DNA of 59,961 nt, counting the filler. It is 4 parts of 4 records of this genome, joined end to end, with 100 filler letters (N's around TTAATTAATTAA, not from the genome) between each part and the next. Parts side by side here need not be neighbours in the genome. Positions count along the whole stretch, not along the records: positions 1 to 31,472 come from SRR31156797_2833; 3 more parts are not named here. One strand, given 5' to 3'. A program made the translations under genes and the position numbers. The notes beneath the pieces are model-generated. The model saw only the letters and a list, made by a program, of their open reading frames with translations. It ran no database searches and had not been told where the DNA came from. The first letter of the stretch is position 1. The number at the start of each line of letters is the position of its first letter. This document shows, in pieces, positions 3,830 to 24,354 of this stretch.

Positions 3830-3884
3830 TTTATGCATGTTTGCTTATTTGGTGCAAGCATACCTTCGCGGAAAGGAGAGAAAA

Positions 3885-6026: not shown

Positions 6027-6604
6027 TCGGTGGATTTCAGTCGTTTACCCTCAGTGATTTTCCAGGGAAACCAGCCGCAATAGTTTTTACCCAGGGATGC
6101 AACTTTAATTGCCCCTATTGCCATAACCAACATCTGTTGAGGAACTCGGTAAAACCTTCTTCCTTTATGGAAGAAAGTGTCCTTAGTTTTATGGAAAAGT
6201 ATACCGGGATGCTGGAAGGATTGGTTGTTACGGGTGGTGAACCTACTCTGCAGCCGGATTTAATGCGCTTTGTGTCGGAAATTAAATCACTTGGGTTTGC
6301 TGTGAAGTTGGACACCAATGGGAGTGCCCCGCAATGCCTTCTGGAATTGTTGGAAAATAACCTGATCGATTATATCGCCATGGATGTTAAAGCGCCCTGT
6401 GAAAAATATAATCAGTTATGTGGTACAGCGGTTGATGTCGCGTGTATCCGTGATTCCATGGATCTTATTGCTTCCAGTGGAATACCTCACCATTTTAGAA
6501 CAACCTATTATCCAGCTTTGCTTGGAGAAGAAGATATTGAGGATGTCAAAAAGTTGGTTCCAGAAGGCTCGCAATATGTTGTTCAGCAGTACATACCTGT
6601 ATAA
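6020..6604 (+). CDS. nrdG: Anaerobic RNR activating radical SAM protein
   Basis: GCNFNCPYCHN, TGGEPTLQ and KLDTNGS motifs; overlaps the end of nrdD. Confidence 0.95.
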   Translation: MLIGGFQSFTLSDFPGKPAAIVFTQGCNFNCPYCHNQHLLRNSVKPSSFMEESVLSFMEKYTGMLEGLVVTGGEPTLQPDLMRFVSEIKSLGFAVKLDTNGSAPQCLLELLENNLIDYIAMDVKAPCEKYNQLCGTAVDVACIRDSMDLIASSGIPHHFRTTYYPALLGEEDIEDVKKLVPEGSQYVVQQYIPV

Positions 6605-9855: not shown

Positions 9856-10000
9856 TAACTATTGGGCCGGACTGCTCAACAGTTACAGATCGAAGTTAGA
9901 TGTTTTCGCTGCATAATGGTCAATAGTATTTGATTATTATCGGGCTTTCACAAGCCAGAAACGGACATGATTTGAAGGAGACGGTTGAAAATGCTGCCCT

Positions 10001-10726
10001 CTAGTGTATTTGAAAATGGACAGGCACAATGACTTCGCCTACCGTGGGGATGCCATCTTTTGTTGCCGGAATGAAATGCCATTTTTGCACAGCCTTGAGC
10101 GCAGCCTTGTCTAATAGCTGGTAGCCACTGCCTTGGCTGAGTTGAATGTGCTTGGGAGAACCGTCCTCAAGGACGAGGACACTGATCATGACGATTCCCT
10201 GCCAGCCCCTGCGGCGGGCAAGTGGAGGGTAGGTTGGCTTGGGGTTGCTCTGGTACAGGGGGCTTGCCTGAGATGTCACCGTTGCTGCCGCTGCTTGTTG
10301 GGCCGCGGGTGACGGATTTTGGGTGGTGGAGCTTGGTCTTCCTGCAGAGGTATTCTGTACATTTTGAGCTGGCTTTTTCCCAGTTTGCAGCTGTTTTTTT
10401 CTGGTTGGAGGTCGGATGTGCTTTACTTCTTTTGCTGTTGTCGGTTGAAGCGGGGCGGGTTCATCCGCTGTAACTTTATTTAGCTTTGGCAGGGGGGCAG
10501 CTGGTACGGCCATCTGCTGTTGAGGGGGTCGCTGTGGCGGAGTTTGGGACGTTTGTACTTGCTGTGCCGCGTGCTGTTGTGCAACTGCACAGTCATCAAA
10601 GCTGACGGTAATGCTTTCTGCTCCAGGGAGCTGCGGAGCAAGCTGTGCATGTTCAGGCCAAGGGAGAAGCAGTATTCCTCCGTGAGAGATGAGCGCGCAG
10701 AAGAGAGCAAAGAGTATTCTTTGCAT
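10001..10726 (-). CDS. tonB: Energy transducer TonB
   Basis: TM with SHG, Pro/Gln-rich linker, C-terminal YPPLARRRGWQG...SGYQLLDKAAL...WHFIPA. Confidence 0.93.
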   Translation of the reverse strand: MQRILFALFCALISHGGILLLPWPEHAQLAPQLPGAESITVSFDDCAVAQQHAAQQVQTSQTPPQRPPQQQMAVPAAPLPKLNKVTADEPAPLQPTTAKEVKHIRPPTRKKQLQTGKKPAQNVQNTSAGRPSSTTQNPSPAAQQAAAATVTSQASPLYQSNPKPTYPPLARRRGWQGIVMISVLVLEDGSPKHIQLSQGSGYQLLDKAALKAVQKWHFIPATKDGIPTVGEVIVPVHFQIH

Positions 10727-10742
10727 GATTAACCTAGTTTCA

Positions 10743-11153
10743 TCATTCCCTGCTTGCCTGCAGGGATATTTTTGTCAGACCACAGGCCTTTAGCTCGTCA
10801 AGTGCCAGGTAGAGTTGCTGGTATGTGACTGTTTTTTCAGCAAAAACGAGTAGTTGCGGCTTTTCTTTGCCCCCTGCAATGGCGGTCAGCCGTTCATGCA
10901 GCTCCGCAGGCGTGAGAGGTTGTTCATTGAGAAAAAACTCAATGCCTGTTTGGCCATTTTTGATGGAAAGTGATACAGGACTTTCTTCCGTTTTTGTTGC
11001 TTGAGTCGATTGGGGGAGATCAAGCTGCAGCCCATGATGAACAGCCATGGAAAGCATGGCATAGATAAAAAAGACCAGCAACAGAAACACGATATCAATC
11101 AGCGGCAGCATCTCTATCCGTGCCGGTTTGGTTCGGATATGCTTGAGTTTCAT
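10743..11153 (-). CDS. exbD: Biopolymer transport protein ExbD
   Basis: IEMLPLIDIVFLLLVFF TM motif with the conserved Asp. Confidence 0.93.
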   Translation of the reverse strand: MKLKHIRTKPARIEMLPLIDIVFLLLVFFIYAMLSMAVHHGLQLDLPQSTQATKTEESPVSLSIKNGQTGIEFFLNEQPLTPAELHERLTAIAGGKEKPQLLVFAEKTVTYQQLYLALDELKACGLTKISLQASRE

Positions 11154-11863
11154 TGGATGCTTCCTTCATTTTCGATGTGGCTGTGTATGTCTTTTTTTGC
11201 TCCATTGCTTTTAGAGGGGATGCTGAATTCCTCTGGTTCCGCCGTCATCCTCCGTACCTTGCAATAGACTACCTCGAGATTGGAGGCGTATTTCTCCATG
11301 ACATGGATGGCCTTGTTTATTCGGTTGTTGAAATAATTATAAGGGATGACCGCTATGATGGCGATGCCGAGTCCTGCTGCTGTGGTGATGAGGGCCTGGG
11401 CAATACCGGCGGTAACCAGTTTGGGGTCTGCTATACCACCAGCACCAAGCATTTTAAAGGAACTGATAATGCCAAGTACTGTGCCGAAGATGCCGAGGAG
11501 CGGGGCAATGGTAATCATGGTGTCTAAAATCGGCATGCGGCGGCTCATTTTCTGCACCATGTGGTTGGCTTCGGCTTCCATGGCTTTAACCATGTCAAAC
11601 TCCCGGTGCAGTATGCCTACCGCAAGCACGCGTACCACATAATCTTTGCAGGGTTCTGTTTTTGTTTTACACGTTTGCCAATCACCCTCCTGGGCCAGGA
11701 AAAGCAGTTCATCCATCAGGGGACGATTACGCTTGCGGTCAAGCGATGCCCAGAAAAGAAGGCGTTCCAGCACTACCGTCATCACTGCGATGGAGCAGAG
11801 GAGCAGTGGCCACATTACCGGACCACCGCTTAAAAATATTTCGTATAATCTCATAAGAACCAT
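11150..11863 (-). CDS. exbB: MotA/TolQ/ExbB proton channel protein
   Basis: GGPVMWPL, APLLGIFGTVLGII and GIAQALITTAAGL motifs. Start placed at ATG 11863 (TGATG overlap); 11854 is an alternative. Confidence 0.92.
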   Translation of the reverse strand: MVLMRLYEIFLSGGPVMWPLLLCSIAVMTVVLERLLFWASLDRKRNRPLMDELLFLAQEGDWQTCKTKTEPCKDYVVRVLAVGILHREFDMVKAMEAEANHMVQKMSRRMPILDTMITIAPLLGIFGTVLGIISSFKMLGAGGIADPKLVTAGIAQALITTAAGLGIAIIAVIPYNYFNNRINKAIHVMEKYASNLEVVYCKVRRMTAEPEEFSIPSKSNGAKKDIHSHIENEGSIQ

Positions 11864-12747
11864 CAGGTGGAAGATGCCGGGTGAATGAGCAGGGCTATCT
11901 GCTCTAGTGCGTCGGCAAAGGTGGTTGGTGAAGGACTGCACACCAAGTCAGGATTAATGACGTGTATGCGGTCATTATGGACGGCTTTCATCCTGGAAAA
12001 TTTGTACCATTTTTTTCTTTCAGTGGCAGCTATACCACTTTCTGTGCCCATGATGGCAATGATTATCACATCTGGGTCATGGGCAAGGATCCGTTCGTAA
12101 TTCATGGTACCGTTTTTTTGGTTGCCTGCGATGTTACTGCCATTGCTGTAGACGATGTAGTCGTTGGTAAAGGATCCTTTAACCGAAGAAAAAAGAGGGT
12201 GTGATCCTATTTGCAGAAAAACTGTTTGTCGAGGTAGATCTGCATAGTGGCGTGCAACAGCTTGTACCCTGTGTCGAGCCTGTGCTACGATCTTTTGTGC
12301 TTTTTTATCAACCCCAAGCAGTTGGCCCAGCTGCAGAAACTGGGTGCAGATTGCATCAAAAGAGGAGGGTTGTTGAAACTGCACCACCCGTAGGCCCAGA
12401 TTTTTCATCTGCTGCAGTTGCTGCTGTTGGGTAAGCCCCGTAGCCAATACCAGATCGGGCTTGAGGCTGACAATTTTTTCCAGGGAGACCTGCATCACAG
12501 AACCGATTTTGTCTTTGTCTTTTGCCGCTGCCGGGCGGACGCAATAGCTGGTATTGGCAATAAGCCGGTCATCAGCTCCAAGCAGATAGACGTTTTCTGT
12601 ATTGATCGGTCCCAGGGATATAATGCGTTGTGGAGCTGTATAAAGTGATTGGTCAGCTCTGCCTTCTCCTGCTGATACTGGAGATTGAAGGGTAAGCAGG
12701 CAAAACATGAGTAAGGCAAATGTTGATAGGGCGATAGTGTGTTTCAT
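11863..12747 (-). CDS. Class III periplasmic binding protein (BtuF-like, corrinoid/metal complex)
   Basis: Signal peptide MKHTIALSTFALLMFCLL; PQRIISLGP...TE, EKIVSLKPDLVL, DPDVII. Start moved to 12747, just after the upstream stop. Confidence 0.85.
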   Translation of the reverse strand: MKHTIALSTFALLMFCLLTLQSPVSAGEGRADQSLYTAPQRIISLGPINTENVYLLGADDRLIANTSYCVRPAAAKDKDKIGSVMQVSLEKIVSLKPDLVLATGLTQQQQLQQMKNLGLRVVQFQQPSSFDAICTQFLQLGQLLGVDKKAQKIVAQARHRVQAVARHYADLPRQTVFLQIGSHPLFSSVKGSFTNDYIVYSNGSNIAGNQKNGTMNYERILAHDPDVIIIAIMGTESGIAATERKKWYKFSRMKAVHNDRIHVINPDLVCSPSPTTFADALEQIALLIHPASST

Positions 12748-12749
12748 GG

Positions 12750-13601
12750 CTAGTAGTAGCTGAGTATGGTCAATGCTCTTGTTAACCTGTCTGTAAAAAA
12801 ATCTATACATTTATCCCTAAACGCCAATCCTTTGTAATAGGTTGTGCTATTATATTCGATTGTGGGACAATCCACATCAATTCCCACCTCCTCAAGCATT
12901 GTCCGCCAGCTGTCGTCTGCGCCCATCAGGTCGTCTTCCACATGAATTCCGGCGAGAAACATTATCGGGATGATCCTGGTTTTTCTTATCATCCTGTCCT
13001 GGTTATTTTTGCGGATTTGGTTGATGACCGCCTCGTGATCAGGAACCCCTTCGATTGACGCTGCATGGACATTTGAATAGAGTCCGGTAACCAGCCGTTC
13101 AATACCGAGGTAGGTGGAATTAACCGGATCGGCGGCAAGGGGGGTGCCATGCAGAGCAAGCAGGTTGAGGGAGTCTTCACCAATAAGGAAATCACTGGAA
13201 ACAACCTCGAGCACCTCTTTGATAAAATCCCAGCGATGGCAGAGCGTCTCACCTACAATTGTTCTGAGACCGGGAAAGTAATTGCAGGTTTCAAGTAGCT
13301 GCTGGTATTCGGTGCCTGGGAAAATATGGAGCGGTTGGACGATAGCCTTACGATAACCAGCGCTCTCTATCTGGGCTAACGTTTCCTGAAGGCTGGGCAG
13401 TTGTTCTTTTTTTCTGATTATCTCAGAAGTGTATGCCCAGTAGATTTCATACTCTGAAAAGGACTGATTGAGTTTTTGTTTAAAATGTTCTATTGCCACC
13501 TTGCCCTGACTGGAACTGCCAAAGGTCGTGATAACGATAGCTGGTTTTTCTTTGAGTTTGGGAAGGCGCATCTTGCGCCCGATGTATCCTTGTTGATGCA
13601 A
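12750..13601 (-). CDS. cbiK: Sirohydrochlorin cobaltochelatase (CbiK family), cytoplasmic
   Basis: TFGSS, AYTSEII, QPLHIFPGTEY, HGT and PIMFLAGIHVEDDL (both catalytic His present); no signal peptide. Confidence 0.88.
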   Translation of the reverse strand: MHQQGYIGRKMRLPKLKEKPAIVITTFGSSSQGKVAIEHFKQKLNQSFSEYEIYWAYTSEIIRKKEQLPSLQETLAQIESAGYRKAIVQPLHIFPGTEYQQLLETCNYFPGLRTIVGETLCHRWDFIKEVLEVVSSDFLIGEDSLNLLALHGTPLAADPVNSTYLGIERLVTGLYSNVHAASIEGVPDHEAVINQIRKNNQDRMIRKTRIIPIMFLAGIHVEDDLMGADDSWRTMLEEVGIDVDCPTIEYNSTTYYKGLAFRDKCIDFFTDRLTRALTILSYY

Positions 13602-13615
13602 ACTGTACTCCTTCC

Positions 13616-16600
13616 TTATATATTTTTCCGTTTAGCACCTAGCACGGCCAGGCTGATAAGGGCAAGAACAACCAGACCTGCCAACCATTCGACCCCGGAT
13701 GAAGTCATCTCTGTGGCTTCATCCGGAGTGTTCATTTTTTCCATCTTATATCCTTCTATCTCTGTAGTATTCTCAGCTTCTGGCGCTGTCGTGTTTTTTT
13801 TTGCTGCCTGGTCAGCAGATTTGCGTCCTGGAGTGGTCAGCTGTTGCTGGAGATGCTGTCGTTTTTCCACCTGTTCTGCAAGCGATGTACCAGCCATTTT
13901 TTCAATTGCTAATTTGAATGCAGCCACCATGTCCGGACTCAAAACACCGGGCAGGGAGATAATAGAAACCACCATCTGGTTGAGCAGTGGATTGTTGCAG
14001 GTATGTTCGCAACAGGCAACCCCTTTTTCGACCACGGAAACCGCATAGTCGACAGCAAGTTTCTTTTTAACCGCTTCCTCAGGATCCCAATATGCTTTGC
14101 GAATGCTCTCCAGCATGCGGGAAGTGATAGATTGATGTGCCCAGGGGGAAGCCTGCTTGAAAAATTGCTGAAGGTTGAGATTGTACTTGTCCTCCACATA
14201 TACTTCATAGCTCTGCTGCCATTTTGCCGCATCGATTTTATCCGGCGTGGTCACCTGCCAACCCCACAGATATTCGACATAATTGGCCATTTCCCTGGCG
14301 CCTGCATAGCCTTCCTTTTTCATGCCTTCAATCCAGTGTGGATTAAGATATCTGCTGCGTATTTCTCGTCCCAGGCTTTTAGCAACATCCTCCACCTCTA
14401 CTTGGCCTGGGTGTTGCTGTCTGGTTACTACTGTTTTTGGAGCGCGGCCTGAGAGGTGACGGATTGCCATGGATAATCCACCGAGGTATTGGTAAAAATC
14501 ATCGTTATCAAGCAGGCCGTACAGGTTGGAGGAACGGGAGTGGAGCGCTATGTCAACGCCTTTGAGCTGCTCCTTCAGCAGCTGCGGGGCAGAAAGGCCC
14601 CAGTGGTTTTTACCAAAGGTGAAACTGGTTCGTCGTGTAAAGACATTCACAATTTCCTGCTCGCTTTCCCATATTCCTGAAGCTGCAGCCATTTCAGAGA
14701 TACCGTTGCCGTAGCTTCCAGGGGCTTCTGAAAAAATGCGTAGGCGACTGTATTCCTCCGCTGTCTGTTCATCCATTCCCTGTGCTTGGAGTATCTGTTT
14801 TAGTTTCTGGGTGTTTTGTTGAACCAGGTTGTCCAGATCGGTTTGGCGGATGGCAAGTTGGACTCCCTGGTCGATTAATAGCATCTTGTCCGGAAAGAGG
14901 TCTCGATAGAGGCCTGAAGCATTCACCATGACATCAATCCGGGGCCGTCCCAGTTCTCTGGCTGGGATAACTTCCACCCCTGTTACTCTTCCGCCACTGG
15001 ACCAGGTGGGTTTGATGCCCATTAGGTAGAGGACGGTCGATTCGTTTACGCCTTCATTGCGCAGGGTCTCGGTGGCCCATAACACCACTGCCACCTTGTT
15101 GGGATAGGTGTTAGTGGTCCGTACATGTTCTGCTATAAGCTCTTCAGCGGCTTTTTTGCCTAGTTCCCATGCAGCAGGAGTAGGAAGTTTTTGCGGACTA
15201 TGGCCGTAAAAATTGTTCCCTGTAGGGAGGGCATTTGGGTTGCGGATGGGATCGTTCCCTTCGCCAGGGGAGACGTATCGTCCTCCAAGGCCTTTGAGCA
15301 GGGTTGCGATTTCAGCCGTGCCTGAAGATTGGAGTCTGGCCGCTATCTCGTTGCTTTGTTCGCCGGGGTGATACTTGATGATGCTTTTGGCTGTTTCTGC
15401 AGCGGCCTCGGCATTGAGGCCTCTACCAAAGTGATGCATGCCGTAGGGCATGAGGTTTGCTTTGATTTCTTCCAGGTAGTGGCCTAACAGGTGAACCTGT
15501 TCATCTTGCTCATCTTGTTGCTGGTGATGAGGGGGCGCTGCGCTAGAGTCATGATCATGTTGTTGGTAACTGTCTGTCGCAAGGTCCGTAATGATCCCCG
15601 TGCTGTCGACCAGATCCATCAGTTCGGCATATATTACCTGAACTGTATCGCTTGTTCTTGCCCTTGCTCGTTCATAATTGTTTATCAATTCTCCCATACG
15701 CCTGTATTCCTGGTGTAGGCCGGCTTCTTTCAAGGGCGGCGTGAGATGAGAGATAATCACCCCCCGTCCCCTGCGTTTTGCCTGGATACCCTCTCCAAGG
15801 TTATCGACGATATAGGGGTACAGGTTAGGGATGTCAGCAATCAATATTTCCGGGGAGCAGGCGGGTGACAGTCCGGCCTGTTTGCCTGGAGTCCATTCAT
15901 AGGTAGCATGGGTGCCGAGGTGGACCATGGCATCTGCCTTGAAACCATTGGCCAGCCAAAGATAGACAGCCAGGTACTGATGGTGCGGGAAAATGGTGGT
16001 GTCGTGATAGAGCTTCATCGGGTCATCGTTGAGACCTCGTACCGGCTCCGGCAGCAGCACCGTATTACCCAATTGTACTGCCGGAATGAGAAAATTGTTA
16101 CCATCAACCATGAGCGGTGTGTCTTCGGGTTGACCCCATTGGCTGGTAACCTTTTCCTGAAACTCTTGGGGCAGTTGTTTAAACCAGTTTTTGTATTGCT
16201 GTATGGGAAGCCTGACGACCTGTGATGATTGCAGCAGTTTTTCTAATTCGCCCGGAGCCCAGGAACCAATATTTCGAGCTGAGGTCATAATCAGCTGTTT
16301 GATTGCTGCTTCCTCCGGCACTTTGCCTACCATGTAGCCTTCTGCAGCTAGAGCAAAAAGGATGTTTTCCAGGCTGGAAAAAACATTGAGATAGGAGGCA
16401 CCGATATTTTGTTTACCCTGGTGGTGGTTATAAAAGAGTATGGCGACTTTTTTTTGATGGTTTGCCATTTGTTGGAGGGTGAGCCAGTTGTTTATTCGGG
16501 GTATGAGTCGGGCAATGTTTTCTTTAATCGGGCGGCTAAGGTAATACGATTTACTGGTGTCTGGATCATGGACTTGTTCTTTGGCGGCCAGCGGAGTCGG

Positions 16601-17557
16601 CTCAATTAATCCTGAGATTTCCGGGGTGGCAATAGTCCAGGTAACTTCACTGCCGCCTATACCTATGGGGCTTTGTCGCCACTGCTCCAGTGTATCCTGA
16701 TAAAGGCTGATCCCGTTGATAATTGGGACGTTGAGTTGGTCTAGTAACTCGGCAAGTGTATTGGTGAGAGCAGAGTAAAATTTGAGAGATAAGGCCACAA
16801 TCAGGTCAACCTGGATTTTGTCCTGGTCATCAATGAGAAATTTTTTAATCACCTCCTGGTCCTTGCCAAAGCAGGGCACTGGGGTAAAACCGGCTGCCTC
16901 GAGTTGTTTGATCAGAAAACGTATTGGTTGTTCCTGTCCAGGGGTGAGCGATGAAGAGAAAAAGAGTAAACCGACCCTGGGTTTTTTAGGGGAATATCCT
17001 GCGCGTTTCTCCTGCCACTTAAGGTATTGCTGCAAAGATGTAAAGGGTGCCGGGGCATCGGGATGATAGATACCCAGCTGGACCTGCTTGTGCACCGGAG
17101 CAAAAGTAATGGAGGTGTCAATGTGACGATGGGCCGCCAGCAACAGCATGTTGCGCAGGTTATGTATGCTGAGATGGCTGAAGTACTCAGCAAGTTGTTT
17201 GTCAAAAAGAAAACCCCGCTTTTTAAGGGACTCATCGTCTATGGAACTTCGCAGGGCGTAGATGGTTTTTCCTTTGAACTTTATATGGTTTTTTACATAT
17301 TCTTCCAGCTCCCTGCCCATGACGTCGACGATGATTACCTTTGATTGGTTTACAGCTGTCTCCAGTGTTTTGTCGTCGGGCTGTAATTCTCCGGCAGACA
17401 TTACCAGGATATTCACTTTAGTGTCCAGCCCCTTTACTGCCTGGTTGGCGATATAGGAATCACCGTCAATGACCATCAGGGTCAGGTCTGCTGCCATCAG
17501 CAGACCTGGGGAAAAGAGTACAACCAGAAGAGCGGTCAGGGCTTTCAGGGATGTCAT
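13616..17557 (-). CDS. CobN/Mg-chelatase H family protein with signal peptide and C-terminal membrane anchor (HmuS/BtuS-like)
   Basis: HLGTHATYEWTPGK, EGIQAKRRG, LPTGNNFY, RPRIDV, SGLYRD, NPHWIEGM and GYAGA motifs. N-terminal signal peptide; C-terminal TM followed by KRK. Confidence 0.92.
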   Translation of the reverse strand: MTSLKALTALLVVLFSPGLLMAADLTLMVIDGDSYIANQAVKGLDTKVNILVMSAGELQPDDKTLETAVNQSKVIIVDVMGRELEEYVKNHIKFKGKTIYALRSSIDDESLKKRGFLFDKQLAEYFSHLSIHNLRNMLLLAAHRHIDTSITFAPVHKQVQLGIYHPDAPAPFTSLQQYLKWQEKRAGYSPKKPRVGLLFFSSSLTPGQEQPIRFLIKQLEAAGFTPVPCFGKDQEVIKKFLIDDQDKIQVDLIVALSLKFYSALTNTLAELLDQLNVPIINGISLYQDTLEQWRQSPIGIGGSEVTWTIATPEISGLIEPTPLAAKEQVHDPDTSKSYYLSRPIKENIARLIPRINNWLTLQQMANHQKKVAILFYNHHQGKQNIGASYLNVFSSLENILFALAAEGYMVGKVPEEAAIKQLIMTSARNIGSWAPGELEKLLQSSQVVRLPIQQYKNWFKQLPQEFQEKVTSQWGQPEDTPLMVDGNNFLIPAVQLGNTVLLPEPVRGLNDDPMKLYHDTTIFPHHQYLAVYLWLANGFKADAMVHLGTHATYEWTPGKQAGLSPACSPEILIADIPNLYPYIVDNLGEGIQAKRRGRGVIISHLTPPLKEAGLHQEYRRMGELINNYERARARTSDTVQVIYAELMDLVDSTGIITDLATDSYQQHDHDSSAAPPHHQQQDEQDEQVHLLGHYLEEIKANLMPYGMHHFGRGLNAEAAAETAKSIIKYHPGEQSNEIAARLQSSGTAEIATLLKGLGGRYVSPGEGNDPIRNPNALPTGNNFYGHSPQKLPTPAAWELGKKAAEELIAEHVRTTNTYPNKVAVVLWATETLRNEGVNESTVLYLMGIKPTWSSGGRVTGVEVIPARELGRPRIDVMVNASGLYRDLFPDKMLLIDQGVQLAIRQTDLDNLVQQNTQKLKQILQAQGMDEQTAEEYSRLRIFSEAPGSYGNGISEMAAASGIWESEQEIVNVFTRRTSFTFGKNHWGLSAPQLLKEQLKGVDIALHSRSSNLYGLLDNDDFYQYLGGLSMAIRHLSGRAPKTVVTRQQHPGQVEVEDVAKSLGREIRSRYLNPHWIEGMKKEGYAGAREMANYVEYLWGWQVTTPDKIDAAKWQQSYEVYVEDKYNLNLQQFFKQASPWAHQSITSRMLESIRKAYWDPEEAVKKKLAVDYAVSVVEKGVACCEHTCNNPLLNQMVVSIISLPGVLSPDMVAAFKLAIEKMAGTSLAEQVEKRQHLQQQLTTPGRKSADQAAKKNTTAPEAENTTEIEGYKMEKMNTPDEATEMTSSGVEWLAGLVVLALISLAVLGAKRKNI

Positions 17558-19569
17558 TTTGCTATCTTAGCCTGGGCACCTGCCAGGAGTGCTGCCAGGC
17601 CTTTGGCTGTAATCTGCGGGAGGGTATCTTGGATAAATGGGTTGAGCTCTACGTCCGTTTTTCCGGCAAGTTCAGAAGCTGTCATCTCTATCCATGTGTC
17701 AATGGTGCCGGTATCTTGAAGTATTCCCCTTTCTGCATCATCACTGATGACCAGGATGGCTTTCAGGAAATCAGCATACCTGGGCTGGAGCAGGATACGT
17801 TCCAGCTCTGCTCGCAGAAGAGAGGTTTGGTCTGGTTTGACTGCTTTATTGCAAAGATTATGCAAGCTTATTCTTCGTTCTTTTAATCGTTGAAAAATGG
17901 AGCGCCCTGCAGTCAGGCCGTTTTGCAGATGTATTGCATCCCGTACCCCAGCATACACGGTTCGAGCGATCAGTTCGCCCATTTTGGTATGGCCCCCGGT
18001 GGAATCAATGTGATAGCCTGCACCCTGGACCACTATAATATTATCGGTCCCCGTTCCGGTTGCCTGGTTCACCTGGGGTGAGTAGCTTGAGCGAATGTCC
18101 AGATCCTGCAGAGCTGCTGATTTGGCTTCGGTTGCACTGAGAAGAGCCCTGGTCATGGCTCTTGGAGAGAGCTGCATGTTGGTGAGGAGCAGGATGTTAA
18201 TTGTTCCCGGCTTGTTTTTTTCTGCTTGTCCCGGCTCATAAAAAGAACCGCTATCTTTACTCATCCGGACACTGTTGCTGCTGACACCTGCGGTGACTAG
18301 GGCTGTGACTTCCATTTCTTTGAAGCGTTGTGTTGCTACAGAGAGGTTGTCCATGTTGGCACCGGTAAAAAGGATGGATGTGTTATTTTCATCCAGGTGC
18401 AGTGTCTGTAAGGAATCTTCGCGCAGCGCCTCTAACCCCTGTTTATGGCCTAATCCCCAGGAAGGCGGCGGAAAATAGTGGTTGGCAACAGTGGTGACCC
18501 CTTCTCTTTGTCCTTCTAAAGTGGACACGACGGTCATTGGGTGCGTAAAAGTAATAGCAAGCGTTTTATTCCGAAAGTCCTTGATATCTGTCTCAATGAT
18601 TTCCGCCTTTTCTACATAATCAAGATCCAGTGTAAGTGCTCTGGTGCTGACGACTTCCTGCGGCAGAACAAAATTTTGTTCGTCACTGAACTCTTTATTG
18701 TAGATACGAGCAGCTAACCAGGAAACAAAGTATCCTGTGTGGGTGGCGGCTCTGCAGGTCAGGTCGCAGGGGAAGAAAAAAACCTTATTATTTTTTACCG
18801 CATCCACTTCGTTCCATCCGGGACTGTCAAGGATGCCCATAGTAGAGCGATCGCCACCGCATCCATAAAGGACCTGTGGGTTAAACTCTTGCCACTGCTC
18901 CAAGGAGATCGGAACAATACTGCCGTTTTGGTTCCACGTAGGCGCGATGCCTCCTGCTGCTGTGATAAATTCATTTTGAAATGAGTCATCTCCTGGGGCC
19001 GTGACAGTTTCCCTGCCCATGAGCCGCATCACCCGCTGTCTTTTTTTCTGTGGGATTTTGTCAATTTTATCAGCGATAACCTGTAATTGTTCCTTTTGCC
19101 GTGCGATGATTTTTTCAGCCTCTTTTTCTTTGTCAAACAGACGGCCAAGGAGTCGGATCTGGGCAAAACTTTCATCAATGGAGGCGGGAAAGAGCTGGAC
19201 CAAGGTGGCTTTGCCGGTAAATTGTTTACGGACTCCTTGTTGGAGGTCTGCGTAAAAAATGAGGTCTGGCTCAAGGGAGGCAACCTTGTTTAGATCTGGA
19301 TTGAAAAAGCCGCCGACAGCAGGTATAGCACTGTTTTGGGAGGGCAGCACTGAGTGGTAGGTTCTGCCGCGTACCACATTTTCAGCACCAAGGCGCAGCA
19401 GAATTTCGGTTATCGAAGGTACCAGGGAGACCACTCGCTGTGGTGGTACCTTTATGGAAATTGTATTGCCGCCTGAATCAGTAAAAGAAAAGGGAAACGC
19501 CGCTGTCTGGGCACTTCCAGGGAAAAGGAGAAACATCATAATGAGTATGCCGACAGTGTTTTTCATCAT
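17554..19569 (-). CDS. Fusion of a periplasmic binding domain and adenosylcobinamide amidohydrolase CbiZ
   Basis: Signal peptide; N-half PQRVVSLVPSITE...PDLIF (BtuF-like); C-half VTAGV, GTINI, TEAKSAAL, ATGTGTDNI, GGHTKMGELIA (CbiZ). Confidence 0.88.
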   Translation of the reverse strand: MMKNTVGILIMMFLLFPGSAQTAAFPFSFTDSGGNTISIKVPPQRVVSLVPSITEILLRLGAENVVRGRTYHSVLPSQNSAIPAVGGFFNPDLNKVASLEPDLIFYADLQQGVRKQFTGKATLVQLFPASIDESFAQIRLLGRLFDKEKEAEKIIARQKEQLQVIADKIDKIPQKKRQRVMRLMGRETVTAPGDDSFQNEFITAAGGIAPTWNQNGSIVPISLEQWQEFNPQVLYGCGGDRSTMGILDSPGWNEVDAVKNNKVFFFPCDLTCRAATHTGYFVSWLAARIYNKEFSDEQNFVLPQEVVSTRALTLDLDYVEKAEIIETDIKDFRNKTLAITFTHPMTVVSTLEGQREGVTTVANHYFPPPSWGLGHKQGLEALREDSLQTLHLDENNTSILFTGANMDNLSVATQRFKEMEVTALVTAGVSSNSVRMSKDSGSFYEPGQAEKNKPGTINILLLTNMQLSPRAMTRALLSATEAKSAALQDLDIRSSYSPQVNQATGTGTDNIIVVQGAGYHIDSTGGHTKMGELIARTVYAGVRDAIHLQNGLTAGRSIFQRLKERRISLHNLCNKAVKPDQTSLLRAELERILLQPRYADFLKAILVISDDAERGILQDTGTIDTWIEMTASELAGKTDVELNPFIQDTLPQITAKGLAALLAGAQAKIAK

Positions 19570-19632
19570 TTATTGGTGGTTCGGGTTATTCTTTTATCAC
19601 GGATGCAATCTGTTACTGTATGTCAGGCGGAT

Positions 19633-20001
19633 TTATGGACGGCTGTTGTCAGTGGCGGGCCTTTTTTTTTCAGGGATATATACCATGGAGCCATTTGTTA
19701 GTCGGTAAGCGACGCCAAGGCGCTGCCCTTTACCTTTAGCCGTGTCCTTAGTCACTTTTATAGCTTCAATTTGTGTCCCTTTTTTGGTGATGATTTCCAT
19801 TTCACCATTGCTGGACTCTTTGGTTATGGTTACTTGGGAATCCTGACGAAGCAGGTCCTCGAGGTGGTAGGTGCCAAAGAGAGCAAGGAGGAGGCCGACA
19901 ATAAATACCAGGCCCAGGTCAAAAAGGTTGGCTACTCCTGTCAAAGGGTCGTTATCAGAGAGTCCTGACCCCCTATTTTGTGTCCGCTGAAAATATTTCA
20001 T
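19633..20001 (-). CDS. DUF2149 protein (HmuV-like)
   Basis: DPLTGVANLFD TM motif and G-x-RLGVAYRL...YIPE C-terminus. Confidence 0.88.
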   Translation of the reverse strand: MKYFQRTQNRGSGLSDNDPLTGVANLFDLGLVFIVGLLLALFGTYHLEDLLRQDSQVTITKESSNGEMEIITKKGTQIEAIKVTKDTAKGKGQRLGVAYRLTNGSMVYIPEKKRPATDNSRP

Positions 20002-20606
20002 ACTCTTTCATTCGGCTTTTTTTCGTAGTCGCCCATGATGATTTCAGCTGCCAGTTCCATATTCTTCACGTCTTCTTCTGCCCAGCGTCGCTGCACAGTG
20101 AAAAAAAAGTAGCTCACCAAGCCCAATGTGAGCCCAACCACTGTAGTAGTAAAGGCAATCACCAGGTCTCCGGAAAGACGGGTCAGGTCACCTTGGCTAA
20201 GTGCAGCAAGTCCGGTACCCATGGGAATGAGGGTGCCTATCAAACCCAGTCCTGGGCCGATCCTGATCAGCATTTTTAGTTGGTCCAGTGATTTCCACAG
20301 TTGGTGTTCTTTTTCACGAAGCAGATGCACCACGGTTAGTTCTGCATGGGGTTGTCTGGGGAGTTCTATAAGCTGTTGACAGCATTGGCAGACAGCCGGT
20401 GGGAAGTTGGAGAAGTTTTGGTTGGTCAGGGAAAACAGGGGATCTGTGTTTTTATCCAACCGTTTGCGGGTCAGCCACAGTCCGAAAAAACTGCCGCTGT
20501 ACATGATTATCCACAGGATAAGGGCTGACAAAAGGAAGAGGACAGGAGTGAGCAGGGATGAGGAGACAAGATAGATAAACGACTTAAAGAGTGCTGTTAT
20601 TTCCAT
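19998..20606 (-). CDS. MotA/TolQ/ExbB family protein (HmuU-like)
   Basis: GPGLGLIGTLIPMG and AFTTTVVGL motifs; sits between DUF2162 and DUF2149. Confidence 0.9.
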   Translation of the reverse strand: MEITALFKSFIYLVSSSLLTPVLFLLSALILWIIMYSGSFFGLWLTRKRLDKNTDPLFSLTNQNFSNFPPAVCQCCQQLIELPRQPHAELTVVHLLREKEHQLWKSLDQLKMLIRIGPGLGLIGTLIPMGTGLAALSQGDLTRLSGDLVIAFTTTVVGLTLGLVSYFFFTVQRRWAEEDVKNMELAAEIIMGDYEKKPNERV

Positions 20607-21352
20607 GTTCTTACCTGCAGTCGTGTTGCCCCCTTGTTTGTTTTTGAGAAGTAGCTGCTGAATAACCCTCCTGAAAAGGCTATTCCAATCACCACCGGCA
20701 ACCAGAGGGGAATTTGATGATTGAGCGGAGCTGCACCGGATTTACTGAGCCTGTAGATTCTATCGATGTCACTGAACTGGGGGACAACAAGGATGGTCAG
20801 CAGAAAATAGAGTGCTGTTAATACCATCAGGGTCCCAAGGCCATAAACTGGCTCATTGTTTTTCATCCAACTGACAACAACTGCACTGATACAACTGACA
20901 ACCAAAAAAACGAGGTAAAGCCAAGTGAAAAGCCAGGGCATGTCAGGGTATAAAGCGTGCATAAAACCGCCGCTGAAAAGAATCACTGAAAAACAGACAG
21001 GGCAAGGCAGGGAGAGCAGTACCCAGCCTGAACTATTTGTGCGGTTTTGGGGCGGTCGTTTTAAAAGTGCCGGCCCCCAGAGGAGAAGGAGGGCGGCAAG
21101 GAGACAGTGGAGGGCCATTCCGTTTTGGATAAACAGCATGAAATCCTCCAGGTGCTCCATCAGGTCGCCCTGACGGAGCAGGAACCCGGCAAGCAGGAAG
21201 GACAGAAGATAGCTTGCCTGGCAACAGCAGAAAAGTACCCATCGTTTGGGGCCTGTTTCCTGCTGGATAAGATAGGAGAGCCCGGCCCCGCTTTTAACGG
21301 CAAAAATGCCCAGTGAAAATGCGAGGCCAAGCAGTAGTGATTTTAACTCCAC
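20597..21352 (-). CDS. DUF2162 putative membrane permease (HmuT-like)
   Basis: Multi-TM protein with IFAVKSG, PCPVC and LYFLL motifs; GTG start overlaps the receptor stop. Confidence 0.82.
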   Translation of the reverse strand: MELKSLLLGLAFSLGIFAVKSGAGLSYLIQQETGPKRWVLFCCCQASYLLSFLLAGFLLRQGDLMEHLEDFMLFIQNGMALHCLLAALLLLWGPALLKRPPQNRTNSSGWVLLSLPCPVCFSVILFSGGFMHALYPDMPWLFTWLYLVFLVVSCISAVVVSWMKNNEPVYGLGTLMVLTALYFLLTILVVPQFSDIDRIYRLSKSGAAPLNHQIPLWLPVVIGIAFSGGLFSSYFSKTNKGATRLQVRTWK

Positions 21353-23334
21353 TAATAATCCCAGCGGAGTCCGAGATACCAGTTGATACCAGGCATGGGA
21401 TACCCTTTAACATAGGCATATTCTTCGTCAAAAAGGTTACGAATTTCGCCGCGCAGGGTGAATGCCCCATAGGTATCCGACTCCAGAAAACGATAGGAGG
21501 CCACGAGATCGGCAACAGTGGATGAATCAAGTTCTACAACCGGTGTCGGGTAATCCCCAGACTCATAGTCATTAACATCCTGCTTGCCGGCGTAAGCAAC
21601 GTTAAACCGGACAAACGTACCCGCACCATTGCTGACAACAAGGCCTGCAGAGAGGTTGGTACCACTTACATAGAGGAGGTCTTCACCCGTTTGGTCATCC
21701 TCATACTTGGTGAGAAGAGTCACGCCGAGATATGGCTTGACTTCCCAGGCCCAACCCATAGGGTCACCAATGTCGTAGCTGATTTCGCCCTCAAAGCCAG
21801 CTATGGTCGCATCGCCAAGATTTTGCCAGGTAGCAGAACCGTCCGTAAGGTAATCAGTGGTAATTTTATCTTCAAAGTCGGTATAAAAATAGGTCAGGGA
21901 TGCCTTAAGACTGTTGCGCGCAAAGTCTAAACCACCCTCATAGGTGTTACTCTTTTCAGGATCGAGGTCAGGGTTACCCACTGTTCTTGTGCCATAGCTG
22001 GAGAAATCAGCTGCCAATTGGTCGGCAGAGGGCATGGTAAAAGCCTCTGCATACTGGGCACGGAGCTTAAGTTCATCGGTAATCATCCAGGCAAGCCCGA
22101 TCTGCGGTGTCAGCCGGGTTTGGTCTTCGTCTCTGCCCGCTGGTTCCTTAACCTCAACATCATACCAGTCGTAACGCAGTCCAATATTTGCGGTGATCGC
22201 ATCATCGGCAAAGCTGGTTTTCCCTAACAAAAATAAAGCAGGATTGGTGTAGGTGGTTTTTGTTGGAGTCCACGTATTTTCCACATCATAATCAAGCCAG
22301 TCAAAGCCTGCAGTAAGGGTAGCGATATCAAATGTGCCGGTTACCTGCGCCTGGGCACCCTGTTGATCTGTTTTGTTGGAAGAATCAATACCATCATCCC
22401 AACCGGATGCATTTGAAGCGGTGGGGTCCTTCCATGTGTTTTCATCCTTTCCGAAAAAATAACGAACCATCCATTGATACTGACTATTATCAGTCCCTCC
22501 GTCATACCTGGTGTCGATGGAGTAATTGTCCTTGTCAGTAGTGTTATCAAGGTCTGGATTGCTGTAATAACCTGGGTTACCAGCATCATCTGCTTCAAAA
22601 CCTGTGAAAATTACTCCCAGCCGATTGGTATCAGAGAAGGAGTAACCTAGATTTGCGCTTATTCCCGTTTCGTAGTTATTGCCTGTGTTTTTAAATCGGT
22701 CACCGCTCCCTGTGTCATAATCGCCTTCGGTTCTGTAGGTATAACTACCTGCAAAATCAAAACCGTTTTGATTAACAGTCCCACCAATGGAGCCTTCTCC
22801 TGTATCAAAACCGCCACCACCAGCTTCCACAAATGCACTGTTAATCTCACCTTGTCGGGTGATGATATTCACCACTCCGCCCATACCTGCAGACCCATAC
22901 TGTACTGCCCCTGGGCCACGGATTATCTCGATCCGTTCAACATTTTTGGTCATGAGTTTGGCAACATTACCCGTACCGGCACGTCGACCGTCCAGGAGAA
23001 TAAGGACATGGCCCTGTAAGTCGTTACCATGCGTATCTGTACGAAATCCTCTGAGGCCTATGGATGTGAGGTTACCCGGATATTTCTGGACGTGGCCAAG
23101 CCCTTTTTCCGCAAGTAGGTCGGCGACATTACGACTTGGAGATTGCTCGATTTCTTCTCGGTTAACGACGGTGAGATTTACACTGACTTGTTTTTTTGTT
23201 TCGGCGCTACGGCTGGCTGTAACAACAACCTCATCCATTATGGTGGGTTGGGAGGGGGCCTCTTCGCATATACCAGCTTGAGCATGCAGGCAGGAAAGGA
23301 CGGGAATCAGTAGAGCGGAATAATACTTTTTCAT
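21352..23334 (-). CDS. TonB-dependent outer membrane receptor (BtuB/HmuR-like)
   Basis: Signal peptide, TonB box DEVVVTASR, plug ERIEIIRGPGAVQYG...GGVVNIIT, NPDLDPE, NLFDEEY, terminal aromatic residue. Start moved to 23334 after RBS AAGGAG. Confidence 0.93.
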   Translation of the reverse strand: MKKYYSALLIPVLSCLHAQAGICEEAPSQPTIMDEVVVTASRSAETKKQVSVNLTVVNREEIEQSPSRNVADLLAEKGLGHVQKYPGNLTSIGLRGFRTDTHGNDLQGHVLILLDGRRAGTGNVAKLMTKNVERIEIIRGPGAVQYGSAGMGGVVNIITRQGEINSAFVEAGGGGFDTGEGSIGGTVNQNGFDFAGSYTYRTEGDYDTGSGDRFKNTGNNYETGISANLGYSFSDTNRLGVIFTGFEADDAGNPGYYSNPDLDNTTDKDNYSIDTRYDGGTDNSQYQWMVRYFFGKDENTWKDPTASNASGWDDGIDSSNKTDQQGAQAQVTGTFDIATLTAGFDWLDYDVENTWTPTKTTYTNPALFLLGKTSFADDAITANIGLRYDWYDVEVKEPAGRDEDQTRLTPQIGLAWMITDELKLRAQYAEAFTMPSADQLAADFSSYGTRTVGNPDLDPEKSNTYEGGLDFARNSLKASLTYFYTDFEDKITTDYLTDGSATWQNLGDATIAGFEGEISYDIGDPMGWAWEVKPYLGVTLLTKYEDDQTGEDLLYVSGTNLSAGLVVSNGAGTFVRFNVAYAGKQDVNDYESGDYPTPVVELDSSTVADLVASYRFLESDTYGAFTLRGEIRNLFDEEYAYVKGYPMPGINWYLGLRWDY

Positions 23335-23377
23335 TGTTATTTCTTCTCCTTTTAAGAACGAATGCCCGGAGAGAAAT

Positions 23378-23421
23378 AAAAAAAATCCCCGGACCAATTA
23401 TCTTTCAATTGATCCGGGGAT
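23378..23421 (-). terminator. Intrinsic terminator in the receptor leader (riboswitch expression platform)
   Basis: ATCCCCGGATCAATT...AATTGGTCCGGGGAT followed by a U-tract on the minus strand. Confidence 0.82.
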
Positions 23422-23548
23422 GCCCTGATTTAAATCCGCAGATGCCTTTGAATCTCTTGTCCACGGAGATCCAGGAAACATGGAAGCCATATAAATAATG
23501 ACTGAGTATGAAGTGCTTCCATGCGGTACGTTTATTTTTGGTACCTTT

Positions 23549-23723
23549 GTTCAGGTAGGTCTTCTGACTATCCTCACTTACAACGGCCTTCCCACTTTGC
23601 AGCAGTGGCGCACTTGGTTGAAAGTATTTTTCCTTAACTGTTTTAAGGAGAGGTTTACAGCGGCGGGCCCGTCCCGGATTTCCACCGGATTCCCTTTTTA
23701 CGCTTGCTTACAAGCACCTGAAA
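23549..23723 (-). ncRNA. Cobalamin riboswitch upstream of the TonB-receptor operon
   Basis: Minus strand reads CAGGTGC...AAAAGGGAATCCGGTGGAAATCCGGGACGGGCCCGCCGCTGTAA...GCCACTG...GGGAAGG...AGTCAGAAGACCTACCTG. Confidence 0.95.
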
Positions 23724-23911
23724 CAGGATCAAAGAAACAATAAAATGTGAAATATGGCAAGCTTTTTATGTCGTAAAATCATAGTCCTATATAGTGGCCC
23801 TCTCGGTGTGAGGCTTTTGTTGCTTGCAACTCCATGTGATAGAAAATATAAATGGTGTGGATCTCCATCCCAATATTAATCAACTGAGCATAACTATTAT
23901 GCTGGAAAAGA

Positions 23912-23957
23912 TTGACAAATATAATTGTTTGGTTAATATAAATCGCTTAATGGCGAT
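23912..23957 (+). promoter_or_regulatory. Sigma70-type promoter with probable ArsR operator
   Basis: TTGACA (23912) and TAATAT (23934), then ATCGC-N6-GCGAT (23942-23957) just upstream of the ArsR gene. Confidence 0.55.
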
Positions 23958-23981
23958 ATGTGAATAAAGTGATATGGGGCA

Positions 23982-24344
23982 TTGATGAAATCATTTATCA
24001 AGGTAATGAAGGCGTTGTCCGACCCTAACAGGGTACGGGTGCTTAAGCTGTTGAAAGGTAAAGAACTTTGTGTTTGTGAAATTCAGGCAGTTCTCGAGCT
24101 TGCTCAATCGACAGTTTCCAAGCATATGAAACTGCTTGAAGATGCCGGTCTGGTGGACAGATCTCGCCAGGGAACCTGGATTATTTACAGTTTAGCAGAC
24201 GGAAGTGAGTCGGTTTATGCACAGACCATGCTTTCACAAATAGAGCATTGGCTGGACGATGACAAGGAACTTAAAAGAATGTACGCTGCTATGCCTGATG
24301 CGCTGGTATTGCGGGATTGCAGCGCAAAAGATGGAATACAGTGA
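23982..24344 (+). CDS. ArsR/SmtB family transcriptional repressor
   Basis: KALSDPNRVRVL, ELCVCEI metal-binding motif, QSTVSKHMKLL. Confidence 0.92.
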   Translation: MMKSFIKVMKALSDPNRVRVLKLLKGKELCVCEIQAVLELAQSTVSKHMKLLEDAGLVDRSRQGTWIIYSLADGSESVYAQTMLSQIEHWLDDDKELKRMYAAMPDALVLRDCSAKDGIQ

Positions 24345-24354
24345 CAGGAAAATC

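Follow-up and report, generated by a model that had tools for sequence, protein, structure and literature searches.

Introduction

HmuS, a class I chelatase homologue encoded in the hmuYRSTUV operons of Bacteroidota, is a heme de-chelatase that removes iron from heme (Nath et al. 2025, PMC12583661, partial text), and like BtuS1 and BtuS2 it is predicted to be periplasmic and held by a C-terminal membrane anchor (PMC13227078 and PMC6460266, both partial texts). The name BtuS denotes a class of CobN-like proteins found in B12-regulated receptor clusters, set out by Rodionov in 2003 as cited by Rocha in 2019 (PMC6460266, partial text). A cluster with a CobN-like gene is also carried by plasmid pSZ77 of T. 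lovleyi SZ, whose authors recorded the absence of CobS and CobT and left its function unknown (PMC3403914), and the Pseudomonas aeruginosa genes PA1922-PA1925 are Zur-regulated and strongly induced by zinc starvation (PMC4542158, partial text; PMC11761036). Here we analyse an eleven-gene operon that lies behind a cobalamin riboswitch on the minus strand of a 59,961-nucleotide stretch of DNA (the window, four joined parts of one genome), and that encodes an exported CobN-like protein together with putative proteins for corrinoid binding and trimming, cobalt insertion and energy coupling. The operon is best explained as a cobalt/corrinoid-linked variant of a widespread module in which an exported CobN-like protein is combined with a TonB receptor and a MotA-like/DUF2149 stator.

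The operon and its control

The operon forms one minus-strand transcription unit (10001-23736), in which the riboswitch is followed by genes for the TonB receptor, a DUF2162 protein, a MotA/ExbB-like protein, a DUF2149 protein, a substrate-binding protein fused to CbiZ (SBP-CbiZ), the CobN-like protein, CbiK, a BtuF-like protein, ExbB, ExbD and TonB. This is the arrangement that an earlier note had read from the same DNA: the riboswitch and all eleven co-oriented genes were recovered with Rfam and Pfam, every gene family named was upheld by Pfam, and the exported, anchored CobN-like protein and cytoplasmic CbiK it described agree with hydropathy, the predicted exported topology being conserved in relatives. 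Topology was judged from hydropathy and N-termini only, and export is therefore a prediction throughout. The junctions between genes include four overlaps of 1-10 nt and gaps of 14, 16 and 63 nt, while the longer overlaps of the listed open reading frames (ORFs), 61 nt for CbiK/BtuF-like and 79 nt for BtuF-like/ExbB, probably reflect true starts that lie within those ORFs. In sequence the CobN-like protein shares 88% identity with the homologue in a Desulfobulbus metagenome-assembled genome (MAG) and 83% with that of Desulfogranum marinum DSM 2058, the closest named relative, which places the organism in the Desulfobulbales (Desulfobacterota).

The riboswitch aptamer (23537-23736, minus strand) matches the full Rfam model RF00174 (positions 1-189) at 93.4 bits, E 6.2e-22, with a promoter-like site upstream of it at 23964-23935. 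Between the aptamer and the first gene a hairpin with a T-run, resembling an intrinsic terminator (23385-23421, minus strand; 16 pairs, 7 of them G-C, then TTTTTTTATT) is the top terminator-like site within 9800-24300 and is probably the expression platform of the riboswitch. Because it runs across the TTG at 23397 that is listed as the start of the first ORF, the receptor more likely starts at the ATG at 23334. Relatives were sought in one genome per species across 185,579 species genomes, which gave 289 places confirmed to hold a CobN-like relative; the best 80 of these 289 loci (CobN-like identity 47-88%) were retained, and their six-frame ORFs were searched with the eleven window proteins. 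With a covariance model of our own (R1), built from ten riboswitches, a same-strand riboswitch was found 5' of the CobN-like gene in 44 of the 51 loci that extend at least 6.5 kb upstream, and none was found upstream with this model in the other seven (L011, L016, L028, L031, L034, L036 and L050).

The exported CobN-like protein

At the centre of the operon is a 1313-residue CobN-like protein (13616-17557, minus strand; Pfam CobN-Mg_chel PF02514, 1080 bits), a class I chelatase homologue of the BtuS/HmuS type. Its hydropathy profile shows a signal-like N-terminus and a C-terminal transmembrane (TM) segment at 1288-1306 followed by the tail KRKNI, and both features are predicted in 15 clade members, the set used for residue conservation, and in four distant homologues. 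Among solved structures the best match is HmuS (9d26, 508 bits), ahead of CobN (460 and 439 bits) and ChlH (431 bits), and the NCBIfam cut-offs for CobN are all missed (NF004645, 961 against 1619; NF004644, 894 against 1248; TIGR02257, 669 against 822). Residue-level alignment to PDB chains of HmuS, CobN and ChlH places the superfamily motif HFG(T/A)HG at HLGTHA (546-551), in which H546 and H550 are invariant in all 15 clade members and H550 aligns with His-538, essential in HmuS. The acidic motif D1017-N-D-D1020 with Q1023 is likewise invariant (15/15). Past the end of the CobN alignment a C-terminal extension aligns with that of HmuS, including two cysteines, and ends in the membrane anchor; it carries C1182-C-x-H-x-C1187-N-N, invariant in the clade. 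In the form CC[DE]HTCNN this motif occurs in the window and T. lovleyi proteins and was not found by pattern search in the homologues from Runella, Pseudoalteromonas and Cupriavidus, of which the last two stand in for P. aeruginosa PA1922-25 in our sequence comparisons.

In a quick tree, which holds plasmid-borne and paralogous CobN rows and several long branches, and no rows for HmuS, P. denitrificans CobN or ChlH, the cytoplasmic CobN paralogues split from all exported proteins with 100% support. The window protein falls in a 29-row clade (99%), with the T. lovleyi, Runella, Pseudoalteromonas and Cupriavidus proteins outside it. Close relatives of the module also occur in MAGs labelled Mariprofundaceae (L008), Synergistaceae (L071) and Planctomycetaceae (L073), which suggests either horizontal transfer or binning errors.

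A cytoplasmic CobN works with an AAA+ partner, and the earlier note had stated that the operon lacks ChlID- and BtuCD-type genes. This stands for the 60-kb window, where no FecCD/BtuC, B12-type ABC ATPase or ChlI/ChlD was seen among the other ORFs scanned. Genome-wide checks for ChlI and CobN were made in five related genomes. ChlI-type ATPases were absent from four of them (no TIGR02030 match better than E 6.6e-5; CobS/CobT models were not searched). D. marinum has a single CobN-family gene and no ChlI homologue (best E 9e-5); the nearest relatives also have one CobN-family gene each. BtuCD is another matter. D. marinum, with eight cobalamin riboswitches, has a separate riboswitch-led operon of cbiK-btuC-btuD-btuF-cbiA-cbiC-cbiD and methylases, so that the lack of BtuCD is true of the operon and probably not of the organism. 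The chromosome of Desulfosarcina variabilis (G005) holds at least 11 full-length CobN-family genes, several of them at about 7.35-7.40 and 8.40-8.48 Mb, and four ChlI-like genes (405-429 bits, under the BchI cut-off).

Predicted corrinoid trimming and cobalt insertion

Immediately upstream of the CobN-like gene lies that for SBP-CbiZ (17554-19569, minus strand), in which a signal-like N-terminal segment precedes a Pfam Peripla_BP_2 domain (46-267) and a CbiZ domain (341-542). The latter belongs to the CbiZ family of adenosylcobinamide amidohydrolases (PF01955, 183.2 bits against a cut-off of 27), and no solved CbiZ structure matched it; the binding-protein part reaches only 26 bits against the BtuF model NF002894 (cut-off 234). 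Both domains are present in all of the best 120 SBP-CbiZ homologues. The link to the chelatase homologue is also physical, as Pfam reveals in-frame SBP-CbiZ-CobN fusions in L071 (1982 aa) and L042 and an in-frame DUF2149-SBP-CbiZ fusion in L078 (7641-9974). Further fusions were noted: Pfam finds SBP-CbiZ-SBP in P0182 (934 aa), and precomputed Pfam matches give a receptor-CobN fusion in P0107 (1926 aa) and a PF03843-CobN fusion in P0118.

The gene that follows the CobN-like gene encodes a class II chelatase of the CbiK family (12750-13601, minus strand; PF06180, 119 bits against 26.2) with no hydrophobic segment, and so presumably cytoplasmic. It falls far short of the equivalog model SiroCoChCbiK (NF047852, 83 bits against 400). 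The HG, E and GxH positions nevertheless align with those of Salmonella enterica CbiK (1qgo), the catalytic His/Glu/His being kept. Its best solved match is the heme-binding FetB, and the second is the Desulfovibrio vulgaris CbiK(P) 2xvx. An N-terminal GYIGRK and the lack of a signal peptide mark a subfamily that comprises the window protein and those of 14 related loci, among them loci in which CbiZ was not found (L005, L011 and L031). In D. marinum the operon type is the most divergent of three paralogues (114 bits against 233 and 200), and a role as the housekeeping enzyme is ruled out, that genome having two better-scoring cbiK genes under riboswitches of their own. A third D. marinum CbiK, under another riboswitch, has an N-terminal extension of about 67 residues. 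CbiK paralogues with signal-like N-termini and His-rich stretches (D. marinum L094, 10406-11488, minus strand; L018, L044, L046 and L068) resemble periplasmic CbiK(P), and in some loci such paralogues lie under riboswitches or adjoin the CobN-like module.

Membrane partners and putative energy coupling

The DUF2162 protein (20597-21352, minus strand; PF09930, 115 bits) is polytopic, with seven hydrophobic segments, and is a putative inner-membrane permease; it occupies the slot that HmuT, annotated 'hypothetical protein' in papers on hmu operons, has in those operons. In an alignment of 68 rows P116-C117-P118-x-C120 and H82 are conserved in at least 95%, and they are invariant in 24/24. It is followed by a MotA/ExbB-like proton-channel subunit of the HmuU family (19998-20606, minus strand; PF01618, E 8e-12), with ExbB/TolQ-like helices and conserved GxGLxGTLxPMGTG and FTTTVVG blocks, and by a DUF2149 protein of the HmuV family (19633-20001, minus strand; PF09919, 103 bits). 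The latter is an ExbD-like single-pass subunit, whose TM segment (23-41) carries an aspartate, Asp28, in at least 90% of 73 rows, a feature that we take to liken it to ExbD-type proteins. Together the two look like a proton-driven stator.

The 3' end of the operon encodes a second such set, ExbB (11150-11941; Pfam MotA_ExbB, 108 bits, with TolQ/ExbB NCBIfam matches below their cut-offs), ExbD (10743-11153; Pfam ExbD, 92 bits) and TonB (10001-10726; Pfam TonB_C, 85 bits; NCBIfam tonB_Cterm, 69 bits against 27), all on the minus strand. Two motor sets in one operon, as also in T. lovleyi, make it unlikely that MotA-like/DUF2149 serves only the receptor. This stator may act instead on the CobN-like protein or on SBP-CbiZ, with which the DUF2149-SBP-CbiZ fusion would fit.

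Two further proteins complete the set. The TonB-dependent outer-membrane receptor (21352-23397, minus strand) has Pfam Plug and TonB_dep_Rec_b-barrel domains. The BtuF-like periplasmic binding protein (11863-12810, minus strand, likely start Met22 at 12747; Pfam Peripla_BP_2) has a signal-like N-terminal segment and finds its best NCBIfam match in BtuF (NF002894, 113 bits against 234).

Conservation among related loci

Gene content was compared in the 36 loci that offer full context, at least 6.5 kb upstream and at least 4 kb downstream. MotA-like and DUF2149 genes are present in 36/36, DUF2162 in 35/36 and the TonB receptor in 27/36, a CbiZ domain in 24/36, and CbiK in 12/36 on the same strand within 8 kb or 17/36 on either strand within 10 kb. 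A separate BtuF-like gene (5/36) and ExbB, ExbD and TonB (6/36, 5/36 and 6/36) are far less frequent, although the complete eleven-gene layout is seen again in L001, L002, L008 and L025. These counts, with those for the riboswitch, define a core of riboswitch, receptor, DUF2162/MotA-like/DUF2149 and exported CobN-like protein, to which SBP-CbiZ is a frequent, physically coupled accessory, the other genes being variable. The co-occurrence with CbiZ, CbiK and a B12 riboswitch for which the earlier note had proposed a survey is thus borne out, and strengthened by the fusions. Some of the loci sit amid B12 biosynthesis genes.

In CbiZ-less loci of Desulfobacteraceae (L014, 13958-18237, plus strand; L016; L018) five other genes stand 3' of the CobN-like gene, encoding a DUF4019 protein, a 289-residue protein, a 4Fe-4S membrane protein, a 2-hydroxyglutaryl-CoA-dehydratase-D-like protein and a BcrAD/BadFG-type ATPase, with 6-8 loci per gene cluster. 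This set could provide low-potential electron delivery that reduces a cobalt centre.

A proposed pathway and its alternatives

We propose, tentatively and with somewhat less than even confidence, that the operon serves B12-repressed uptake and dismantling of corrinoids. When adenosylcobalamin is scarce the terminator would fail to form and the operon would be transcribed. The receptor, powered by the operon's ExbB-ExbD-TonB, would then import corrinoids, and SBP-CbiZ would bind them and remove the aminopropanol/nucleotide loop, leaving a cobyric-acid-type product with no lower ligand. The CobN-like protein, with neither an AAA+ partner nor periplasmic ATP, would be driven by MotA-like/DUF2149 and would remove or exchange cobalt. 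DUF2162, with its PCPxC motif, might carry the product, most likely Co2+, through the inner membrane, and the dedicated cytoplasmic CbiK would place it in sirohydrochlorin for de novo B12 synthesis. The BtuF-like protein probably passes intact or trimmed corrinoids to BtuCD encoded elsewhere, and salvage and cobalt harvest may run in parallel.

Several observations weigh against removal of cobalt in this pathway. Cobalt is very tightly held in corrins; we found in the literature neither an enzymatic removal of cobalt from corrin nor an experiment on the window clade. The residues that distinguish HmuS are moreover replaced. At its specific LSLDHxxEFMGG the window protein has LLDNDDFYQYLGG, like the LLDSDDYYQFEGG of CobN, so that Asp stands for HmuS His-1209 and Gln for Glu-1212, both invariant in the clade; the heme ligand His-254 is replaced by the clade-invariant Tyr261, and Met-79 falls in a stretch that does not align with the window protein. 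HmuS residues 651-927, which include the insertion 780-898, correspond to only 77 window residues with two Met and nine His, and the 120-residue Met-rich insertion of HmuS domain IV has no counterpart there. As the window protein lacks the residues that define HmuS and has those of the CobN type, de-chelation cannot simply be transferred to it from HmuS, and to judge by these residues its chemistry may not be HmuS-like. The corrinoid-recycling reading in the earlier note is thus supported in part: the conserved link of the module to B12, CbiZ and CbiK holds, whereas the HmuS residues are replaced and we found no precedent for corrin demetallation.

The CobN-type motif raises the thought of a chelatase or transmetallase working in the forward direction in the periplasm. 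With the proton-driven stator in place of the CobST/ChlID ATPase, it would put cobalt into imported corrinoids that are metal-free or carry the wrong metal. An active-site motif of the CobN/ChlH rather than the HmuS type, and a missing AAA+ partner, which fits another energy source, are what such an enzyme might show. Its substrates, metal-free corrinoids, are to our understanding rare in nature, however; exported homologues in Pseudoalteromonas, Cupriavidus and T. lovleyi share the motif in uptake-type contexts, and the cytoplasmic CbiK and the DUF2162 permease are left without a role. We consider this very unlikely.

Acquisition of heme or iron on the hmu pattern, for which the riboswitch would be a second layer of control, also has its points. 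HmuS is the closest solved relative of the CobN-like protein and heme-binding FetB that of the operon CbiK, and the best NCBIfam match of the receptor, a further point against a corrinoid substrate, is the heme-receptor subfamily (206 bits, cut-off 317), slightly ahead of the B12 receptor model TIGR01779 (175, cut-off 600), both scores lying below cut-off. The heme hmu operon of Porphyromonas gingivalis is reported to have B12-box elements (PMC11681262, partial text), which means that a riboswitch alone is no proof of a corrinoid substrate. But the HmuS residues named above are replaced and the Met-rich insertion is absent, no HmuY-like gene appears among the Pfam matches of the operon genes, CbiZ and CbiK are linked to the module, 44 of 51 loci have the riboswitch and some are embedded in B12 biosynthesis genes. 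That the protein acts only on heme, which the earlier note had named as counting against its reading, is therefore disfavoured by the missing residues and the conserved B12-linked genes; we find heme harvesting scarcely credible.

Physiology adds to the difficulty. In a survey of 50 host genomes CbiD, which marks anaerobic de novo synthesis, was found in 44, in keeping with the proposed pathway, but a CbiM-family Co/Ni transporter was found in 43, the genomes in which CbiD/CbiM were not found being small MAGs. Hosts without any known cobalt transporter are thus ruled out as the explanation, and no missing transporter compels the hosts to recycle cobalt. In D. marinum intact salvage would be available, and cheaper, through the BtuCDF encoded next to de novo genes. 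The cobalt-recycling reading of the earlier note is weakened by both CbiM and the D. marinum BtuCDF. An alternative is salvage or remodelling without demetallation, in which cobamides or cobinamide imported by the receptor would be trimmed to cobyric acid by SBP-CbiZ. The intact corrinoid would then be bound, unloaded or translocated by the CobN-like protein, which together with MotA-like/DUF2149/DUF2162 would be a proton-driven importer or chaperone beside or instead of BtuCD, and the preferred cobamide would be rebuilt. The established role of CbiZ is salvage of cobinamide and pseudo-B12 (PMC8620254, partial text). CbiZ is adjacent in 24/36 loci and fusions join it to the CobN-like protein, the operon encodes a pair of B12-type binding proteins and no BtuCD, the de-chelatase residues of HmuS are not present, DUF2162 has a weak generic likeness to MFS-type carriers of organic solutes (best Z 10.1, within the generic range), and salvage would be cheaper than destruction of the corrin. 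Set against this, invariance of both the chelatase-superfamily catalytic His (H550) and the acidic motif of CobN type suggests catalysis at a metal site; the module is also met in nickel and zinc contexts, for which a corrinoid is not expected; the linkage to the CbiK paralogue holds in loci without CbiZ; and D. marinum already has BtuCDF. On balance we regard salvage without demetallation as unlikely, though it has to be taken seriously.

DUF2162, to which the proposed pathway gives the passage of the metal, provides a further point on the negative side, as neither fold nor profile comparison (hhalign, Foldseek, VIA-align) gave evidence of a metal permease. Its AF2 model (mean pLDDT 83.8) has no Foldseek match at E <= 0.001, its best VIA-align match is the MFS-type carrier at Z 10.1, a value within the generic range for helical bundles, and hhalign finds no relation to the membrane protein of the Runella locus described below (probability 0.13). 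A complex prediction of DUF2162 with the operon CbiK scored 0.00, which speaks neither for nor against binding.

Last on this side is the lack of CbiZ at 12 of the 36 full-context loci. It leads to a form of cobalt piracy, in which a non-corrinoid chelate such as a metallophore or cobalt porphyrinoid would be imported and stripped of its metal by the CobN-like protein, CbiZ being merely co-regulated. B12 riboswitches commonly control cobalt transporters, as Rodionov's comparative work reportedly found, and these 12 loci keep a riboswitch-linked core; the T. lovleyi cluster has no CbiZ either, and homologous modules stand in nickel and zinc contexts. Yet the SBP-CbiZ-CobN and DUF2149-SBP-CbiZ fusions couple CbiZ physically to the rest of the module, the loci showed no candidate genes for a cobalt metallophore, and every characterised CobN-family case acts on tetrapyrroles (PMC12583661, partial text). 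Such piracy seems to us improbable, and stepwise dismantling of corrinoids remains the reading we prefer.

Other features of the window

Divergent from the riboswitch promoter region is a predicted ArsP_1-family permease (24259-25419, plus strand, 264 bits). Two more cobalamin riboswitches lie near the window's start. One (3216-3406, minus strand, 119 bits) is upstream of ORFs at 906-3044 and 1-909 (both minus strand), which encode proteins of the B12-dependent methylmalonyl-CoA-mutase family, an unusual target for a B12 off-switch; for the 712-residue protein no B12-binding domain was reported at E <= 0.001. The other (3641-3843, plus strand) is ahead of nrdD/nrdG ORFs (3660-6026 and 6020-6604, plus strand), and a riboswitch ahead of these genes for the B12-independent anaerobic ribonucleotide reductase has been described for delta-proteobacteria (PMC545781, partial text). 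A similar divergent riboswitch pair is found on D. marinum contig C11. From about 33000 the G+C content of the window rises from about 0.43-0.51 to 0.55-0.60 and the genes shift to sugar, sulfatase and tripartite-transporter functions, which may mark an acquired island or an assembly join.

Comparison with known systems

The parallel with hmuRSTUV that the earlier note had drawn is sustained. HmuS is the best solved match, MotA-like and DUF2149 belong to the HmuU and HmuV families, and the C-terminal Cys motif and anchor are shared with HmuS but absent from cytoplasmic CobN. Like the window protein, HmuS is a class I chelatase homologue, predicted to be exported and anchored, with the catalytic His-538, and the hmu operon likewise sets TonB receptor, MotA/ExbB-like and DUF2149 genes alongside the chelatase. 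The window differs in having Asp/Gln for His-1209/Glu-1212, Tyr for His-254 and no Met-rich insertion, in lacking HmuY and in its additional SBP-CbiZ, CbiK, BtuF-like and ExbBD-TonB genes. Unlike HmuS, its CobN-like protein carries the clade-specific CCxHTCNN and is hosted by B12-synthesising Desulfobacterota.

The earlier note's view that a composition like this had no known counterpart does not hold, in that the BtuS class dates from 2003 (PMC6460266, partial text) and T. lovleyi pSZ77 has the same core (PMC3403914). BtuS proteins, as defined second-hand in the available part of PMC6460266, are CobN-related, distinct from CobN/ChlH, B12-linked and encoded in receptor clusters, and the window operon has just this combination of riboswitch, receptor and CobN-like gene, with a product predicted to be exported and anchored. 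Bacteroides fragilis BtuS1 and BtuS2 are similarly predicted to be periplasmic and anchored and were proposed to act in metallo-tetrapyrrole salvage, and the tests reported for them in the available text concern the use of heme iron only (PMC6460266, partial text). The pSZ77 cluster runs TonB-dependent receptor (TBDR)-DUF2162-MotA-DUF2149-CobN-ExbB-ExbD-TonB-TBDR, flanked by B12 biosynthesis genes, and its CobN-like protein is like that of the window in its sequence (39.5% identity over 92%), its CCDHTCNN and its C-terminal anchor, while the cluster has no SBP-CbiZ, CbiK or BtuF-like gene. In the literature we found no published link of BtuS to an exported SBP-CbiZ or a dedicated CbiK. Nor did we find there the conserved coupling to SBP-CbiZ with its fusions, the subfamily of dedicated CbiK proteins, an operon with two motor sets, the Cys/His motif specific to this clade or the nickel-context homologue.

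This homologue is found on plasmid pRUNSL01 of Runella slithyformis (L099, 4929-12963), where TBDR, membrane protein, MotA-like, DUF2149 and exported CobN-like genes lie between hypA-hypB-hypF and hypC-hypD-hypE/[NiFe] hydrogenase genes. The DUF2162 slot holds a membrane protein with weak NicO/DsbD_2 matches, and the whole locus resembles a form of the module set in a nickel context. PA1922-25 resembles the window in combining a receptor and a CobN-like protein with ExbD/MotA-type partners and in being induced at metal scarcity, but is under zinc rather than B12 control and has no reported CbiZ, CbiK or DUF2162; the Pseudoalteromonas homologue likewise stands in a core module without DUF2162. 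The nickel and zinc contexts favour the view that a metal is harvested from an imported chelate. We accordingly raise, as a speculative and somewhat unlikely extension, that the exported CobN-like protein might be a corrin de-cobaltase driven by the proton motive force, in which the MotA/ExbB-like and ExbD-like stator takes the place of the AAA+ motor on the periplasmic side, CbiZ-trimmed corrinoids are the substrate and the metal passes via DUF2162 to CbiK, and that, more generally, receptor, exported CobN-like protein and stator might be 'metal extractors' for Fe (hmu), Co (this clade), Ni (Runella) and Zn (PA1922-25).

The relatives of the CobN-like protein occur mostly in sulfate reducers and their kin, major B12 producers of anoxic sediments. 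Were cobalt extracted from corrinoids there, an enzyme would for the first time be seen to demetallate a corrin, and the recycling of cobalt and B12 analogues in sulfidic habitats would have a new route. A stator that drives a protein of the chelatase family would put an ExbB/ExbD-type motor to a new use and would explain HmuTUV and PA1924-25, the partners in medically relevant heme and zinc systems. Even with salvage alone, corrinoids would be processed independently of BtuCD and with a CbiZ unusual in being periplasmic.

With the CobN of CobNST and ChlH/BchH the window protein shares the superfamily and the HxGxH and LDxDDxxQxxGG motifs, but these are cytoplasmic and work with AAA+ partners, whereas it has a signal-like N-terminus, a C-terminal anchor and relatives without ChlI. 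Compared with known CbiZ, and with CbiK and the periplasmic CbiK(P) of Desulfovibrio, the window CbiZ is exported and fused to a binding protein, and the window CbiK is cytoplasmic and divergent. The gene class to which the CobN-like protein belongs is thus already known by annotation, as BtuS since 2003, and earlier descriptions of the core cluster give it no function; it is to this class that the operon adds a form linked to cobalt and corrinoids.

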